From a virus, in UHGV virus genome UHGV-0115697: a stretch of 23,896 nt of DNA; one strand, written 5' to 3'. Below, in pieces: positions 53 through 20,887 of this stretch. Every line of letters starts with the position of its first letter. Position 1 is the first letter of the stretch. The notes beneath the pieces were generated by a model. It saw only the letters and a program-made list of their open reading frames with translations, made no database searches and had not been told where the DNA came from. Both the position numbers and the translations under genes were made by a program.

Positions 53-1654
53 TCATGGATTATTATTTACGCCTCTAATACTGCCAGCAGAAAATGACAT
101 AGATGTAGAATTAGTTGCATTAAGGAAGTTATAGGTACGTCGACTGGGTGTGCTGTATTCTCCAATGCCAAGTGCATCAAAAGAAGACATAACAAAACCA
201 TTAACTTTATCAGCCCTTATAGCTGTCATGTTAGTATTCAATGCGGTTGATGCGTGAACAAAATGAGCGTTAGATATTTGCACAGATTCTACTTTACGTA
301 CTGAGTTTCCGTACAGTGCTAAAATCGGGATAGATACTCCTGAAGTATTAGTTGTCTCACCAATATAAATATTACTAAGCGCGGTATTTATATGATTTGT
401 TGAAGTATCTTGTGGCTCTAAAGCTATAGCTCCAATATCATATCCTCCATTGCAAAATATATTGCTAGCTCGATTGCCACCGGCTGATAACCTTAATGGG
501 CAGCTTCCTCCGTACACTTCCACAGTGTCTAGAACAGAGTCGCTGTACACACGTATGCCACCTCCCGTTGCACGGATTGAGATATCTGATACATCGGTAG
601 CTTCGCAATAAATATCTCGAAATCTTGCAAGTCCTTGACCGTCATAGATAAACCATGTATTGAATCTCTTGCCAGTTAACTTCTCGTAATACCACCCAGC
701 ACCGCGAGTATGCAGTATGGCGTGGTTGCACCGCCACTCACCGTCGAACTGGATGTTTTCAAACTTAATACTATCTTGCCCATCATTAGTGTCACCAGAG
801 CCAAAAATATAGTTCTGACCATCGTTCAATGGTTTTATTACTGTAGTCCCTGAGTACGCCTGGTTAGCACCTTGGCCTACAAAAGTTAGCCCTTGGGTGT
901 ATCCAGGTATAGTACAAGGTGACATTCTAAGCTCACCCTTGGGCAGGATAATGCGTCGTACACCAGCATCTATAGCTTTTAATATCGCGGGTGTTTGGTC
1001 GGCAACATGCACGCCGCCGCCGTAATTTTCAATATAGTCAGACACAGGTTCTTTTTTCCAGTTGGTATCTACTGTCGGTGTAGTGGGAACCATTGAACCT
1101 GGTGTGATTTCCCCCTTGTATGAGTAGTATTCATTATTAAATTTGAATGCCTGTAGCGCAGAGTGCAATGGTGAATTGCTACCAAAATATCCAGATGGAA
1201 TAAATGGATGCAAATCATATTGCTGTAATTCAAATAGTTTTATTGCATTATCAAGCGTAGAATCTTCATATCCAACAAGTGAGGCCCCTTCAGGACCAGA
1301 TAACTCTTTCCTTAGCTGATCAGGATCATACTTCAGCACATTAGGAAAATAGAACTGCTGTGCACCATACGCATCATAAACAGCCATAGAATGGCCTTGC
1401 ACAGTTACGAATTTGGCAATCTGTCCGTTATATACAGGGTAACCAGCGGCGTTAATGATGATTGGCTGGGATACAGGAACGTGAGAGCCGTCTTCGTTCT
1501 CCACATAAACCTGAATCTGGTTTTCAGGATTTACAGGGTCAGTGTCAATTTTACCGATATAAATTTTGCCATTGGCTACGGCTTTAAAAGAACGCGCCAT
1601 AGTGAAGAGTTGCGAAGGCATGCTTACCACAACATTTGCGGTGATATCTGACAT
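53..1654 (-). CDS. Tailspike protein (P22 gene 9 homolog): conserved head-binding N-terminus, divergent receptor-binding/depolymerase domain
   Basis: N-terminal [11 protein letters not shown]...[12 protein letters not shown]...DTDPVNP...[12 protein letters not shown]...VLKYDPDQ closely matches the remembered P22 tailspike head-binding domain; GGAG SD 7 nt upstream of ATG at 1654; the track ORF extends to an ATG at 1711 that abuts a terminator T-tract, so 1654 is preferred. Rest of protein is Asn/Thr/Ser/Gly-rich, beta-helix-like, not P22-like. Confidence 0.85.
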
Positions 1655-1711
1655 TTCATTGCTCCAGATACAAGGAATCGCCGCAGCGTAGCTACGGTGA
1701 ATTTTGGGCAT

Positions 1712-1734: not shown

Positions 1735-1786
1735 TCGTTGCGTTGGTTATCTGTCAGTAGTTATGTACTGGCTGAAGGATTTGTAC

Positions 1787-1808
1787 AAAAAACCCACCTG
1801 AAGGTGGG
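1787..1808 (-). terminator. Intrinsic terminator (minus strand) immediately downstream of the 322-aa gene
   Basis: Stem CCCACC / loop TGAA / GGTGGG at 1793-1808 with A6 run at 1787-1792 on plus strand; 9 nt after stop codon at 1817-1819. Confidence 0.6.
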
Positions 1809-1816
1809 TTTCATAA

Positions 1817-2785
1817 TTAGATTTCTGGTTTCATTCTTCCGAAAACCTTTTCTATTCCTTTTTCGTATTCTTCTCTTGTCTCACTCATCGCTGCGACACC
1901 AAGAAGCTTACCGATATGCTGACGCAAAGCCTTGACACCAATTTCAGAAAGGAACAGATGCAACTTATCAGATTGTTTTCCGTTCTCGTCTCGGCTGGCT
2001 CGAATCTGTTCAAGGATTTTACCTTTACTCTTTGCTAGCGGGGTATATATCTGCATGTTGGTTAGCTGCCCAAAACGAATAGGCCGTCCTTTCTCTGGCC
2101 TATTCAGGCCGTACAGTCGATACCACTCCTCGTATAGCTCATCTGGAAATTCCTTTTCATATTGACGAGCCTCTTCACGAACAAACGCTTTGAACTCGTC
2201 AATGACAGCCTGAACTTCTGGACGATAACCAGCAAGCGCATACGCAACCCCCTTAATTCCCGCCTTAGCGGAGGCATTAATAAGTCTCTGTGCTGCGGCG
2301 GCTGCCTTTAACCGTGATTGTGGTAGATCGTCATTATCTTTGGCTTCTATTAGTGCCCTACCAATATCAACAATTGCTGTAATGTCATAACCTAACGCTT
2401 GATGAACGGTTTTAGACTTCGAAGTAAGTTGAAATTTATAGGGATTTTCCATTTTTCGCTGCAATTCTAGATCTCGGTATTTGCTCATATACTGAGCGCC
2501 AAGCAGTTGATCTAAATCCCTGGCATGTTCACCAATCCCTAGCAACTGAGATAATCCAGTTTTCGTAACAACGACAGTTTTCGACTCGTCATCCAGTACA
2601 TAACATTCAGCGTCAATGCCAAAATCATCTAAAAAGTTACCACGATGAGTTGCCCTGAGAATCTTACTTTTCCATCTTGCAGCAGCTGCTTTCTTTGCTA
2701 TTTCAGAACGCTGCTCTTTAGTCAGCGACTTTGCGCGAGCGATCCCGCCCTTAGCTTTCCCTTCGCCACTTTTCTTTTCAGTCAT
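1817..2785 (-). CDS. Hypothetical 322-aa soluble Lys/Glu/Ala-rich protein with basic N-terminus (accessory/moron gene in the position of P22 ant)
   Basis: ATG at 2785 preceded by AAGGTG SD; track ORF extends upstream from a TTG. N-terminus MTEKKSGEGKAKGGIARAKSLTKEQRSEIAKKAAAARW; no confident family match from memory (weak recollection of P63C-domain-like N-termini). Same orientation as tailspike; looks AT-rich. Confidence 0.6.
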   Translation of the reverse strand: MTEKKSGEGKAKGGIARAKSLTKEQRSEIAKKAAAARWKSKILRATHRGNFLDDFGIDAECYVLDDESKTVVVTKTGLSQLLGIGEHARDLDQLLGAQYMSKYRDLELQRKMENPYKFQLTSKSKTVHQALGYDITAIVDIGRALIEAKDNDDLPQSRLKAAAAAQRLINASAKAGIKGVAYALAGYRPEVQAVIDEFKAFVREEARQYEKEFPDELYEEWYRLYGLNRPEKGRPIRFGQLTNMQIYTPLAKSKGKILEQIRASRDENGKQSDKLHLFLSEIGVKALRQHIGKLLGVAAMSETREEYEKGIEKVFGRMKPEI

Positions 2786-2877
2786 AATGCAAGCACCTTT
2801 GTTGTTATGTATGCTTGCATTATATACACTGTACACACATACAAGCAAGCATAAAACTAAAACAAAATGCTTGCATT
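2786..2877. promoter_or_regulatory. Divergent intergenic control region with four ATGC-NN-GCAT operator-like palindromes
   Basis: aATGCAAGCAc (2786-2796), ATGCTTGCAT (2811-2820), aaGCAAGCAT (2843-2852), ATGCTTGCAT (2867-2876); arranged as two pairs with about 24-bp centre spacing; TATATA at 2821-2826 between them. Confidence 0.45.
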
Positions 2878-2945
2878 ACAACCGCGCTACTCCAACTACA
2901 CATTATCATCTGGTATCCTGCTCAAAACTAAGGAGTGGCTACTCA

Positions 2946-3584
2946 ATGAAAAAAATAGATATATATAGCGATACATCAGCCTATGTCATAGGCTCATTGG
3001 GGTTTTTAATTTTTTTTGTTTGGCAGTACCAGTCACTATCTCCAGGATGGCGATTTTTGGGGATGTCTTTGATATCACTTGGTGCAGGAATAGCAACGCA
3101 GGTGTTGATGTATCTCTTTAATGGATGGCTCTCAAAAAGAGTTGAGAAAAAAAGAGCTACTTCAATATGTAGAAGCCTAGCTATTCCAGAAGACTCTACA
3201 GATCAGGATGATATTGCAAAATGTTGGCGGTATATGATTGCAAGATACTCAAATGAGTTACTGGCAAACAGACTGTCCGACTTAATCGGGATCGTAGTTA
3301 CCTCTGTTGGAACAATCATCAGTATAGGGATATCAATTTGGTATGTCGGGATGATTGTCTATTTTGTTTGGAATAGAGACTTCAATGAACCTTCCCTTCT
3401 TTTTATACCTTTATTTTTCAGGGTATTAGCATTCATATGTGAGTTATTGCTCTCTTTTTTCTGCAATGTTTTGTTCAACAGATACCCAGGTGAAGCAAGA
3501 AAGTTTAATAAAAACTATGATGAGTTAAGGAGAACAGATCCTTTTCTATCAAGCAAAGAGTTCCGCGATTCCATTCGCAATTAA
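2946..3584 (+). CDS. Hypothetical 212-aa integral membrane protein (~4 predicted TM helices); candidate superinfection-exclusion-type moron; only plus-strand gene in window
   Basis: ATG at 2946 with AGGAG at 2931-2935; hydrophobic segments AYVIGSLGFLIFFVW, FLGMSLISLGAGIATQVLMYLF, LIGIVVTSVGTIISIGISIWYVGMIVYFVW, LLFIPLFFRVLAFICELLLSFFCNVLF; charged loop and tail; AT-rich; sits where P22 has sieA. Confidence 0.6.
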   Translation: MKKIDIYSDTSAYVIGSLGFLIFFVWQYQSLSPGWRFLGMSLISLGAGIATQVLMYLFNGWLSKRVEKKRATSICRSLAIPEDSTDQDDIAKCWRYMIARYSNELLANRLSDLIGIVVTSVGTIISIGISIWYVGMIVYFVWNRDFNEPSLLFIPLFFRVLAFICELLLSFFCNVLFNRYPGEARKFNKNYDELRRTDPFLSSKEFRDSIRN

Positions 3585-3605: not shown

Positions 3606-5402
3606 TTAGCGATCAGTTGCATCATTGGCAAGTATTGGTCTGATGGCGTTTGCGGCGTTATTCAGCGCTCTTTCATAAGCTGGCGTTCCAGCTTTAGTGT
3701 TTGCCAAACGAAGAAGCATATTCCTTGCGGCTTTGGACTCATACAAACGCATCATTGCACCAAAACCAGCCTCAAGCCCCATTGATACACCAAGAGTCGC
3801 AGTTGCGCCAATCGTCCTTATCCTGTTGGCTTGCGATTGCCCCGTCTGAGTTACTACATTTGCGGTGTCTGACCTTGCTGTTTGCTGTAGAACTTCATGA
3901 AGAGCATCAAGCTCTTTCATGTGCTTTCCAGAAAAAATAGTGTTGTAAATTTCACCGCCTGACTGAGATTTCAGCTTATTAACTTCAGTGATGAACTTGG
4001 CTGGAGAGTCACCGGCCTTTTCCGCTATTTTGCTGACGTAAGCTGCACGCATAGCATCTTTCCCTTTATCATCCAGTGCGCTCCAGATTCGTTTCACGTC
4101 AGATGGTTTTCTGCTTAATACAACGGTATTTATAAGTTCAGGACTGGCTTCACTGCTTGCCTTGTTGAGCTTGTTAGCAATGTTTTTATTAAGCACCTTA
4201 TTATAAACGTTTGCATAATCGGAATTTGCTTTAAGGTATTTTGCTGCGTCTGATGCACCGAGGTTTTTAGCAACTGCGTTACGAAGGTCTTTTGACATTG
4301 CATTCTCTACCATATTGGTAGCTGCTTTTGCCTGGTTGGGGAAGACCATAGCATCTCCCTGAACATTAGATCTAAATGCTGTTCTGTGCTGACGCAAGAG
4401 ATCAAACGTAACATCCAAATCAGTTGCAGGGTTTGCTAATTCTTCACGTAGGTTACGCAAGGATGTAAGCAGGCTTTGATTGGCAGACGTCCCAAGCCGT
4501 TCCTGTCTTGCGATCGCTGTATTCAGAGCATTCATGGTATTTGTGGTATCAACTGCGGCATTACCCATTTTATTGGTGACGTCATTGATAACAGCGCCAG
4601 CGGCATCCTTCCGCCCCCTTAACGTGGTGGTCAGAGATTTCACCACATCATCAGGGTTATACTCACCAAAACGGTCAAAATAATTGCTTACCAGTTTACT
4701 ACGCGTTGCATATTGCTCCGCTCGCTTTGAGCCTGTCCCGAGCAAAGCACCCTCGGCATCCTGAGTAAGGCCACGAGTGAAAGCATTTTTCGGCGGGATA
4801 ACATCAGATGTCATTGGTGTCACGCCCATCGATTCTGATGTGGCAATTTTCTTCGCCACTTCTGGCGCAATATCACCTTTTATAGCCGTTATTCCACGCC
4901 CTATTCCCTTTGCTGCTGCGGAAAGAAGACCCTGTGCGCCCAGGTTAACAACGGCGTTTTTTGCCGCGTTTTCGGTAAAATCACCTTTCTGGTTAGATGC
5001 CTCTGCGATTGAGCCAATCGCCATATTCCCAGCGGTGCTGATTCCTCTGGCGACATCGGCGGTCGCCCCTACGGCTTTCGCGGCTCGACCCAGTGGCAGG
5101 ACATAACCACCAATGGCCTCGCCAGCCTGGGCGTATTGGTCTGTTGGGCGGTTTATCGGACGAGGGATCTGGTAAGGGGTGCTGTCAGCACCAAAAAGAC
5201 TACCAACTGATGTTGCGGCATCAGAAATCCCCTGAGCGACATCAAATGGAATATTTACCAGGCCTCTGGCCGCTTGCTCTGCACTTTGCATGAGCGTTTG
5301 GTCCTGCCCTGGCTCATCCAAGACAAACCCATCAGGCAGTCTAGGTGATGCCTGCTTATCGTCCAGCACAAACCCTTCCGGTAATGCTACATTGCCTGCC
5401 AT
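3606..5402 (-). CDS. Ejection (injection) protein, P22 gp16 homolog
   Basis: 598 aa versus about 609 aa for P22 gp16; last gene of the conserved order 4-10-26-14-7-20-16; Ala/Gly-rich low-complexity sequence typical of E-proteins. Confidence 0.8.
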
Positions 5403-6817
5403 TGACCACCTCGGAACACTATTTTTTGACCGGTTTTCTGATTGGTGGCCGTAGCCCCCTCTGGAATCCCTCCCTGCGCGGCCGCCTGCTGTTGCCCACC
5501 TGATTGCTCTCGTTGCGCTTGCCTTTCTGACACATAGGTATCGTAACCCTGCGAGCTGTAGCCCATGGACTCAGCTTCGCGGCCTGCCACCTTTTGCAGT
5601 ACGGAATACTGACTGCGGATTTCGCTGAGCTGCTTCCTTACCACATCTTCAGGTTGCGTAACATCAAGGCGGGCTATCAGGTTTTCGAGCTTGCTACCCT
5701 CTGCGTTCGACAGTGAGCCCAGACCCCTTAACATCTGGACGTTCTGCACGAAAGCACCAGACTTAAGCTCTTCAATGGCGTTCCTGTTCGCCAGCCCCTC
5801 TTCTGAGGTGGTTGCATCAGGCATCCTTCCCGCATACCTGCCAATACCTTCTAATTCTGGCTTATCCAGTACGGAGTCAATCTTCTCGATCCCCCTTTCG
5901 CCAGTGATTAGCGCTTCGTTATAGCCGTTATTGCCCTCAAGCCACTTTCTGGCCTGCCCAATACGTGCGCCGGTTGCTGGCTTACCGGTTAGCGGATCAA
6001 TTCCCGTCGCTGCTATCTGTGAGTTAAGAGACAAAACATCCATATCCTGAAGTTGTCCTGCTCTTTCAAGGGCCGCCTGTGACTGCTTAAACACATACTT
6101 GTCGTGATTCAGTCTTGCCATTTGAGCCTTATAGGAAAGATCCTGCCCCCTAATAGCCCTCGCATTCGTCATGTCATTATTGCGAATGGTTTCGTTAATT
6201 CTTTGCTGCTCCTGCTGGCGACCAACCATCTTATCCTGAACAGCAAAAGCCTTTTCTGGCCCAAGTGCACCGAGAGACATAGTAGTCAGCATGTGTGATA
6301 GTTGCTCTGGATTCTGGATACCTGTCTGAATCATCCAGTCAGCATTCGCCCCCACGCGATTTAACCTGTCCTTGTTGTCAGTAATGAATTTACTGTAGGC
6401 TTCCGGTCCCTGGGAAAGAGCGACGTTAGCCCTCATGGCTAAATCGCCCATATCGTTGCGTTGCTGCTCATTAAGACCGGAAAACGCCTGTTGTGCCTGT
6501 GCAACAAACGCTGGATTTTCCTGGGCAAACTTAAATAGTCCCGATGGATCACCAGAAGCCCATGCATCAGCGTGAACCTTATTGAACGCACTAATCGCTT
6601 TCTGTTGCTGTTCCTGATTGTAAATATCAGCAACTCCAGCCAGACCACGTAACGCGGTCAGACCAACGTTATTTGCACCTGATCGAGCCAGTTCATTGTT
6701 TTCGCGGATCAGACCAAGCGTTGCGTTAATGTCGCTTGCCTTTGGCGCATTCTCATTTTGCGTACCGATGCCAGCCAGAAAACCACCAGAATTAATACCC
6801 TGTTGCCACGTAGCCAT
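5387..6817 (-). CDS. Ejection (injection) protein, P22 gp20 homolog
   Basis: 476 aa versus about 471 aa for P22 gp20; position between gp7 and gp16 homologs; 16-nt overlap with downstream gene. Confidence 0.8.
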
Positions 6818-17435: not shown

Positions 17436-17808
17436 CTTGTTTCTCCTGAATGAATGGCAGGAAGTGATTAACCATCCTGTCCAGCATGTAACAGTACGTC
17501 TCGTTGGCATCTTCAGGCCTTGTCGTCACGCCGACATCAGAGCAAACGTAAAAGCAGACGTGGGCACACTCATGAACGAGCGTAGCGATCTGCTGATCGA
17601 ATACTCCAATCAGATAGCATCGCTCACCCGTATCAGTGTTTTCATAGTTGCTTGCAATCCCAAGATTGAATGGCTTCTCATCCCCGCTGCCGCCAAGGAA
17701 TTTATCAGCGTGCTGAAACTGTTCTCTGGTTGTTGCGAGGTAGACGTGTGCACTTTGAAACAGCGGAATGGTGAACGCCGGGAGTTTGTGCCATTTGTCC
17801 TTAGCCAT
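17419..17808 (-). CDS. Hypothetical 129-aa protein with HExxH motif (putative small zinc metallopeptidase-like)
   Basis: Motif LVHECAHVCFY; GGAG-type SD; adjacent to upstream 80-aa gene. Confidence 0.55.
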   Translation of the reverse strand: MAKDKWHKLPAFTIPLFQSAHVYLATTREQFQHADKFLGGSGDEKPFNLGIASNYENTDTGERCYLIGVFDQQIATLVHECAHVCFYVCSDVGVTTRPEDANETYCYMLDRMVNHFLPFIQEKQDVSLE

Positions 17809-20731: not shown

Positions 20732-20807
20732 TGGTGCCGGTTAACGGATTTGAACCGCTACCTATTCACTTACAAGGCGACCGCTCTACCATTGGAGCTA
20801 AACCAGC
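20732..20807 (-). tRNA. tRNA-Thr (anticodon UGU)
   Basis: 76-nt minus-strand cloverleaf GCTGGTT-TA-GCTC-CAATGGTA-GAGC-G-GTCGC-CTTGTAA-GTGAA-TAGGT-AGCGG-TTCAAAT-CCGTT-AACCGGC-A-CCA: 7/7 acceptor pairs (one G-U), 4-bp D stem, T loop TTCAAAT, encoded CCA; anticodon stem has one G.A and one G-U. Confidence 0.65.
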
Positions 20808-20812
20808 ATGTT

Positions 20813-20887
20813 TGGCGGGACAGCGTGGACTCGAACCACGATAAGAAGGTTAACAGCCTTCCGTAATGACCTTTATACGACTGACCC
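20813..20887 (-). tRNA. tRNA-Asn (anticodon GUU)
   Basis: 75-nt minus-strand cloverleaf; perfect anticodon stem GAAGG/CCTTC with loop CTGTTAA; T arm CGTGG-TTCGAGT-CCACG as in E. coli tRNA-Asn; discriminator G and encoded CCA; one U.U mismatch at acceptor 4-69; 5-nt spacer to tRNA-Thr. Confidence 0.65.

Follow-up and report, generated by a model that had tools for sequence, protein, structure and literature searches.

An array of four inverted repeats before the P63C gene of a P22-like prophage: a probable promoter and candidate autoregulatory operator set

We analysed an array of four short inverted repeats in the virus genome UHGV-0115697, a stretch of 23,896 nucleotides (23.9 kb) referred to as the window. 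The array lies in the 160-bp gap separating the gene for a P63C-domain protein from a divergent SieA-like gene, and is oriented to the P63C gene, not to its divergent neighbour. Its conservation before P63C genes in several phyla leaves little doubt that the array is that of the P63C gene, whose promoter and ribosome site lie within it. More guardedly, we favour reading it as an autoregulatory operator set that would be recognised by the N-terminal motif of the P63C protein itself. In kind, the array is most likely an autoregulated multi-operator promoter, unusual in its cross-phylum invariance, its unrecognised putative binding module and its transposon origin. The P63C domain (PF10546), widespread in phages, prophages and transposons, has no known function, and an invariant DNA motif tied to a short protein motif offers a handle on the family, in the form of a 10-bp target and a candidate module of about 30 residues. 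Literature searches on the array, the motif, the site sequences, ISMhu11 and functional study of P63C found nothing relevant.

The array and its recurrence before P63C genes

A preliminary description of this DNA had reported four ATGC-NN-GCAT sites in the divergent region, and both direct reading and a pattern search confirmed them. On the plus strand they read ATGCAAGCAC at 2787-2796, ATGCTTGCAT at both 2811-2820 and 2867-2876, and AAGCAAGCAT at 2843-2852. Numbered along the strand of the P63C gene, the sites and the gene are as follows.

2867-2876, minus strand: site 1, the distal operator, ATGCAAGCAT; a homologous first "AA" site is present in 54 of 81 protein-retrieved loci (described below)
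2843-2852, minus strand: site 2, ATGCTTGCTT; its last six bases are the predicted -35 element
2811-2820, minus strand: site 3, ATGCAAGCAT; extends from the -10 element to the predicted transcription start
2787-2796, minus strand: site 4, GTGCTTGCAT; lies between Shine-Dalgarno sequence and start codon, within the 27-nt leader
1817-2785, minus strand: P63C-domain gene, 322 aa; Pfam PF10546, E = 6.8e-14; phrog_2384, function unknown

Start-to-start spacings in the window are 24, 32 and 24 bp, and the order on the gene strand is AA-TT-AA-TT. With AA or TT at its centre, the 10-mer falls short of a perfect palindrome. What is conserved in it is an 8-bp core, TGCAAGCA or its counterpart TGCTTGCA; three of the four cores in the window are exact and one carries a single mismatch. 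Taken as a whole, 2785-2878 forms an imperfect palindrome with 34-nt arms. A TATATA element had also been described between the divergent start codons. It is present at 2821-2826, between the inner sites, and corresponds to the predicted -10 box of the P63C gene; start codons flank the array at 2785 (minus) and 2946 (plus). Site 4 abuts the start codon of the motif-bearing P63C gene, the sequence from 2796 to 2783 being GTGCTTGCAT-T-ATG.

The number of sites in the window is not above chance (4 found, with 5.3 expected, or 3.4 in a second shuffle set), whilst their clustering is beyond chance. The densest grouping seen in 1000 dinucleotide-preserving shuffles was two sites per 100 bp, reached in 57 shuffles, and three or four never occurred. 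The whole 23.9-kb window holds no further 10-mer site with one mismatch allowed, and no second copy of the array was found elsewhere in it. A lone exact core, TGCTTGCA, occurs at 17649-17656 in the late region, and one such match is about the chance expectation. Among five Escherichia coli copies of the array, all eight variable columns of the 90 bp are spacer columns, and the 40 site positions do not vary (hypergeometric estimate of about 0.007 for spacer-only variation).

The association with P63C was followed in both directions, from protein to DNA and from DNA to protein. Searches found 1682 P63C homologues at E <= 0.001 among 4846 candidates scored. For the protein-to-DNA test, 80 loci, one genome per species, were fetched by protein only, making 81 with the window. 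At one end of the range are Enterobacterales (57-76% identity), at the other Acidobacteriota, Myxococcota, metagenome-assembled genomes of Firmicutes, Abditibacteria, and alpha-, beta- and deltaproteobacteria (42-52%). The same AA-TT-AA-TT array precedes the gene in 53 of the 80 fetched loci, or 54 of 81 with the window, and it recurs in several phyla with homologues only 45-50% identical to the window protein. Start-to-start spacings are 22-25, 30-33 (23-24 in three loci) and 22-25 bp, and the spacer sequences are unrelated between loci. Core positions 1-8 are kept in at least 51 of the 54 loci, and the flanking A (position 0) and T (position 9) in roughly 60-85%. Enterobacterial prophage copies, with 60-90% protein identity, likewise have unrelated spacers and four intact sites. 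A near-invariant non-coding element beside a protein that has diverged to 45% identity across phyla is unusual.

In the DNA-to-protein direction we scanned for TGCAAGCA-N14-17-TGCTTGCA-N22-25-TGCAAGCA, leaving site 4 unconstrained. These scans matched 49 viral contigs and at least 120 metagenome contigs and gave at least 150 loci with clean four-site arrays (130 distinct sequences among the matches listed). A P63C-family open reading frame (ORF) starts at the array end in 146 of 150 among the matches listed, and the other four are cut by contig ends. At two loci (L095 and L114) the adjacent P63C proteins are only 27-29% identical to that of the window, and at a third (L116) the protein is recognisable by profile only; all three have the same array. 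The unconstrained site 4 proved to be conserved at 96% or more in seven of its eight core positions and at 82-98% in the eighth, among the matches listed. The array is thus a reliable marker with which to find and orient P63C cassettes in metagenomes.

This distribution bears on whether the sites could serve a global regulator of the host, such as CytR octamers or a palindrome of SlyA/MarR type. The resemblance is partial: the CytR octamer cTTGCATT matches GTTGCATT at 7 of 8 positions, and the SlyA/MarR-type sequence TTAGCAAGCTAA shares GCAAGC. An identical core, however, is found in Acidobacteriota, Myxococcota, Firmicutes and other groups without these enterobacterial regulators, the sites occur only with P63C genes, and no CRP half-sites are evident between them. 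Control by a host regulator is highly improbable, and CytR and SlyA were rejected because the core is conserved across phyla.

Predicted promoter and ribosome site within the array

On the minus strand the array holds predicted expression signals for the P63C gene.

2843-2848, minus strand: predicted -35 element TTGCTT, formed by the 3' half of site 2; spacer to the -10 element, 18 bp
2819-2824, minus strand: predicted -10 element TATAAT, whose last two bases are the first two of site 3
2794-2799, minus strand: AAGGTG, Shine-Dalgarno sequence for P63C; shares bases with the beginning of site 4

The predicted transcription start, placed from the position of the -10 element, is at about 2812, the invariant A at position 8 of site 3. 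Across the 54 array-bearing loci the -10 positions relative to site 3 are T(-4) in 39, A(-3) in 46, A(0) in 43 and T(+1) in 52, and no TAnnAT-type signal precedes site 1 in these loci. This pattern, and the -35, AGG and ATG placements given next, were confirmed in 115 further arrays. At the -35 position relative to this -10, the ending of site 2 is kept as TTGCAT, TTGCAA or TTGCTT, and the distance of 30-33 bp between sites 2 and 3 gives a promoter spacer of 16-19 bp in 51 of the 54 loci. AGG stands directly 5' of site 4, with G at position -1 in 45 of 54 loci. In most non-enterobacterial loci the start codon overlaps site 4 as ATGCTTGC-ATG, with the ATG at site start +8. In most loci the -35, -10, Shine-Dalgarno sequence and ATG are thus locked in register with the sites, indicating selection on expression control. 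Judged by this conservation, the array probably contains the sigma-70 promoter of the P63C gene.

The same arrangement was weighed against RNA or single-stranded DNA hairpins, in which site 1 would pair with 2 and site 3 with 4, or else 2 with 3, in a long leader, the 3:4 hairpin hiding the Shine-Dalgarno sequence and AUG as an attenuator would. The AA sites are exactly complementary to the TT sites and their order is kept in more than 95% of arrays among the matches listed; site 4 overlaps the Shine-Dalgarno sequence and AUG; and a 131-nt region of the window folds well (-47.6 kcal/mol, z = -4.9). The conserved -10 at site 3 and -35 in site 2, however, place the start of transcription inside site 3, so that sites 1-3 would not be in the mRNA. 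The stems appear to be kept by sequence and not by compensatory change: only positions 0 and 9 vary, and between partner sites there is no convincing covariation (p = 0.02-0.9 in 12 tests) or excess of pairing over shuffles. Every arm is itself palindromic, which a hairpin arm does not need, and the spacer "loops" are complementary between pairs in enterobacterial copies only. Such a structure is therefore a very unlikely purpose of the array. A long hairpin of the whole array was considered separately and rejected, being confined to enterobacterial copies, where spacers happen to be T-rich or A-rich. Against Rfam, only two tRNAs in the window pass the gathering score, and the best match within 2650-3000 reached 27.6 bits with a gathering score of 119, to microRNA-precursor models.

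Candidate binder and mode of regulation

The RefSeq label for the 322-aa protein is "P63C domain-containing protein". Near its N terminus is a short basic motif.

2672-2761, minus strand: N-terminal motif GKAKGGIARAKSLTKEQRSEIAKKAAAARW, codons 9-38, a putative DNA-binding module; G13, G14, R17, A30, R37 and W38 are invariant

The motif follows the pattern G13 G14. A R A .. L .... R ... A ... A .. R W38. AlphaFold2 predicts helices at residues 11-20 and 23-37 with moderate confidence (block-mean predicted local distance difference test, pLDDT, 60-72). Presence of the motif goes with presence of the array: of the 80 loci fetched by protein, 74 encode homologues with the motif, and three or more cores lie upstream in 61 of these, compared with 0 of 6 without it. 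In those six (L068, L069, L077, L080, L083 and L084) unrelated sequence replaces the motif, and there is no array.

Thirteen loci have the motif and no array, and ten of them (L021, L025, L029, L031, L037, L039, L045, L048, L056 and L078) form one Acidobacteria subfamily with an extended, altered motif, ..LSxLGAxKGGEARA..IQARW. Members of this subfamily have another inverted repeat, TATACTTGCYCGRG ... TTGACT ... CTCGGGCAAGTATA, around a promoter about 120 nt upstream of the gene; this repeat shares only CAAGTAT with CAAGCAT. Operator variants include GCAAGCAT, GCAAGTAT and a CTCGGG class.

P63C is also the sole ORF in the window with the motif, which scores 63.6 bits. Because the motif and array co-occur, because the two co-vary in the subfamily and because no other ORF in the window has the motif, the P63C protein is most probably the binder, as the most economical candidate. 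The preliminary description had remarked that no small repressor gene is visible, which is most simply explained if the adjacent 322-aa P63C protein is the regulator.

Searched alone (window 2651-2770, minus strand, residues 6-45), the motif matched 314 representative clusters. The proteins that carry it are 35-356 aa long, mostly 35-130, and have it at either terminus, often in 2-6 copies. Short proteins, placement at either end and multiple copies are as expected of a small autonomous mobile module. Pfam and NCBIfam have no model for the N-terminal motif or for a small ORF that shares it (see below), and no solved relative of the P63C protein was found by sequence or fold.

In the mechanism we propose, a protein specific for the 8-bp pseudo-palindrome TGCAAGCA would fill the four sites cooperatively. 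Occupation would be by inverted pairs at 23-bp spacing, the inner two sites being separated by 31 bp, or three helical turns. Once bound, it would shut RNA polymerase out of the -35 and -10 elements and cover the initially transcribed region. The binder would be P63C itself, acting through its basic two-helix N-terminal motif GG-ARA..L....R...A...A..RW, and negative autoregulation would give a set expression level in any host or mobile element that carries the gene.

This layout has parallels in known systems. An 8-bp pseudo-palindromic core is the site size read by a ribbon-helix-helix dimer such as MetJ or Arc. MetJ met-boxes, omega/ParG/CopG systems and toxin-antitoxin operators similarly have repeated boxes of about 8 bp in the regulator's own promoter, several dimers side by side, and portable cassettes on mobile elements. 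The boxes of the P63C array, however, are non-contiguous, there is no evident toxin partner, and the P63C motif has no predicted N-terminal beta-strand and no match to such a Pfam family. The lambdoid OR/OL regions, with CI/C2 and Cro at PR/PRM, resemble the array in having a repeated imperfect palindrome over the -35 and -10 of back-to-back promoters, and cooperative occupancy with autoregulation is the expected logic. They differ in that the window sites are 8-10 bp, not 17 bp, and strictly alternate in orientation at 23/31/23 spacing, in that the presumed P63C binder has no recognised helix-turn-helix (HTH), and in that one site lies on the ribosome-binding region.

Several points weigh against autoregulation by P63C. 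The motif-array association (Fisher p = 9e-5) is not corrected for phylogeny, so that shared ancestry may contribute to it. Strict AA/TT alternation is unexpected for a simple two-fold symmetric dimer site, and a spacing of 23 bp (2.2 turns) sets the paired sites on different helical faces. In three loci (L010, L060 and L074) all four sites are evenly 23-24 bp apart, a spacing too tight to fit a -35 and -10 between sites 2 and 3; the promoter of these loci must be elsewhere. A simple promoter scan of the window did not call the promoter proposed here; it missed the -35 because TTGCTT matches TTGACA at only 3 of 6 positions. Which protein binds, and with which sign it regulates, we infer from sequence comparison.

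The array might instead be a cis site for the main function of P63C, such as nucleation, anchoring or control of transposition, with any effect on the promoter a by-product. Four regular repeats before the gene of a presumed binder recall iteron/Rep and centromere/ParG-omega layouts, and P63C, a multi-domain protein of 322 aa, is larger than a dedicated repressor and travels in a transposon. The promoter, Shine-Dalgarno sequence and ATG are, however, in fixed register with the sites, and the window has no second array. We regard this alternative as rather unlikely.

Transposon and prophage contexts of the array

Many arrays outside this prophage have a second gene on their far side. In 43 of 146 arrays among the matches listed, and in about 18 genome loci, a divergent protein of about 290 aa starts about 25 nt past site 1. 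It belongs to the DDE transposases of the IS1 family and has an HTH at its N terminus. In 30 of 168 loci, inverted GGTAGTGTCTCAGTTTGAAAT ends bound elements of 2.3-3.8 kb that contain, in this order, transposase, array, P63C and a small convergent ORF, and one transposon end coincides with a homology break between L207 and L233. The features concerned are these.

L207, 8009-10371 (also L013, L181, L188, L245 and 25 further loci): IS1-family transposon with P63C cargo
L247, 2809-3042, minus strand; L181, 2728-2988, minus strand; L207, 10062-10304, minus strand: small convergent ORF, 77-86 aa

The C-terminal end of the small ORF is itself a GG-ARA...RW motif (..ALGRxGGLKGGKARAxKLTxxxRSEIAKKAAxARW). 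Its family, unannotated and of more than 7900 protein clusters, is sometimes named "histone H1" by NCBI. The window itself has no GGTAGTGTCTCAGTTTGAAAT inverted ends, with up to 5 mismatches allowed, and lacks the transposase and small ORF as well.

A leftward -10-like T at site 2 +12 is present in 82% of arrays with the transposase and 41% of those without, among the matches listed; the leftward hexamer of the window array is ATACAA. Retention of this leftward -10 with the transposase and its decay without it suggest that the array originally served two overlapping divergent promoters. In our proposal, the ancestral array would also have held, on the opposite strand, an overlapping promoter for the divergent IS1-family transposase; in this prophage the transposase partner would have gone and the leftward -10 decayed.

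These contexts raise the question of whether the binder is instead the IS1-like transposase, through its N-terminal HTH, or the small "histone-H1-like" protein, leaving orphan sites around a constitutive promoter here. The divergence of the transposase from site 1, the transposon ends bounding 30 loci, the presence of the same motif in the small ORF and the fate of the leftward -10 would all fit such a binder. However, about 70% of arrays among the matches listed have no transposase and still keep all four sites intact, the diverged enterobacterial prophage copies included, and in the window, with transposase, small ORF and transposon ends all missing, orphan sites would not be expected to stay invariant. 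Binding by either of these element-encoded proteins in place of P63C is accordingly judged unlikely.

As a wider and distinctly more tentative proposal than autoregulation by P63C, the unit of about 30 residues, GG-ARA..L....R...A...A..RW, could be a minimal DNA-binding module, portable, sequence-specific and so far unrecognised, with which P63C reads the four-site TGCAAGCA code, itself fixed from phylum to phylum. Together with the small protein and the IS1-family transposase it might make up a self-regulating transposon, whose cargo would have been caught as a moron by P22-like prophages of E. coli. If this is true, the array would be a common switch coupling transposase and cargo expression. 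One close comparison is autoregulation in the IS1 family, where InsA acts on IS1 ends. Many environmental arrays lie inside an IS1-type DDE element with inverted ends of GGT... type, and a DNA-binding protein encoded by the element presumably limits transposase expression. The array sites, however, are internal and not terminal, the presumed regulator is the cargo P63C and not InsA, and the window has neither transposase nor ends.

A conserved "site 0", CCGCTCAAGCATA-ATG, abuts the transposase start codon about 20 nt past site 1 in loci with the transposase (for example L022 2885-2905 and L058 2890-2901), and a related ATGCTTGAGCGG occurs in the small-ORF promoter in 13 of 28 cases. The two may represent a second operator class sharing CAAGCAT. 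The idea that "site 0" is a terminal inverted repeat was rejected, as it occurs in a few loci only and is not general.

In the window, the array lies at the position of the P22 immI region, among the following features.

53-1711, minus strand: tailspike gene; Head_binding domain, the P22-type head-binding N-terminal domain
1802-2897, minus strand: P63C cassette (a moron comprising gene, array and about 21 bp), approximate extent from comparison with phage vB_EcoP-611R6 and prophages
2898-2935, plus strand: 38-bp leader with Shine-Dalgarno sequence, ending AAGGAG; outside the array and common to many E. coli prophages
2946-3584, plus strand: divergent SieA-like membrane protein, 212 aa, with its own Shine-Dalgarno sequence; phrog_7745 "superinfection exclusion SieA-like", E = 1.6e-20
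3606-5402 and 5387-6817: two gp16/gp20-like DNA-transfer genes

Only two genes separate the tailspike and DNA-transfer genes, where P22 has sieA-mnt-arc-ant. Phage vB_EcoP-611R6 is 98% identical to window 1787-2935. In this phage and several E. coli prophages, a 1.1-kb cassette has been inserted where the 3' end of mnt would otherwise meet the 38-bp leader, and in cassette-free prophages mnt or an HTH gene is joined directly to the leader. Since this insert carries the array, the array belongs to the P63C cassette and not to the Mnt/Arc control region. In 611R6 the promoter region of mnt and arc is distinct from it, with the array outside the mnt-arc intergenic region. The gene thus brings its own, host-independent control region into the P22 immunity-I region, and the array connects a moron of a prophage with a cargo-carrying transposon of the IS1 family.

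The preliminary description had interpreted the sites as cooperative operators, likening them to the Mnt/Arc-controlled Pant region of P22. The layout on a promoter supports operators for an oligomeric DNA-binding protein, whilst the likeness to Pant does not hold, given that the window has no arc or mnt and that the array occurs outside P22-like phages. The P22 immI region (Pant/Pmnt with Arc and Mnt operators) does share with the window its genome place, a short intergenic region, divergent transcription, operators overlapping promoter elements, and small pseudo-palindromic units of ribbon-helix-helix-dimer size. It differs in operator sequence and in having one Arc and one Mnt operator where the window has four equal sites; the window array is part of an inserted cassette found far beyond P22-like phages.

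One could still suppose that these are P22-type immI operators for a ribbon-helix-helix repressor of the Arc/Mnt kind whose gene lies elsewhere in the prophage, as the region is at the immI position between gp16-like and tailspike genes, and mnt and arc adjoin the cassette in related prophages. However, tblastn with Arc and Mnt queries gave no significant match in the window, whereas it detected arc and mnt in five related prophages used as positive controls (L001, L003, L004, L254 and L255). The array also goes with P63C into phyla without P22-like phages and into non-phage contexts, and the mnt/arc promoter of 611R6 is separate. We consider this reading extremely improbable. A possible mnt remnant, its last 9 codons, lies at 1772-1798 (plus strand); the tblastn match is weak (E = 0.33) but in the expected place, and at this position 611R6, AR_0118 and AREA_486 have mnt, arc and sometimes ant. 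This prophage thus seems, from such comparisons, to have lost the immI regulators (mnt, arc and ant) by deletion and to have retained the P63C cassette.

The SieA-like gene sits where the ancestral module has the IS1-like transposase. It has no obvious promoter: TTGCAT at 2871-2876 lacks a good -10 and TATCAT at 2904-2909 lacks a -35. The 38-bp leader precedes differing genes at the sieA position across E. coli prophages, with the mosaic junction right at the Shine-Dalgarno sequence. Anti-phage defence models (PADLOC) gave no match for P63C, the SieA-like protein or the transposase. The C-terminal part of the tailspike best matches phrog_34776 ("haemolysin-type calcium binding"), indicating that its receptor-binding module differs from that of P22. 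The two tRNA genes are adjacent, at 20735-20807 and 20816-20887 on the minus strand, each scoring 55 bits against the Rfam tRNA model.

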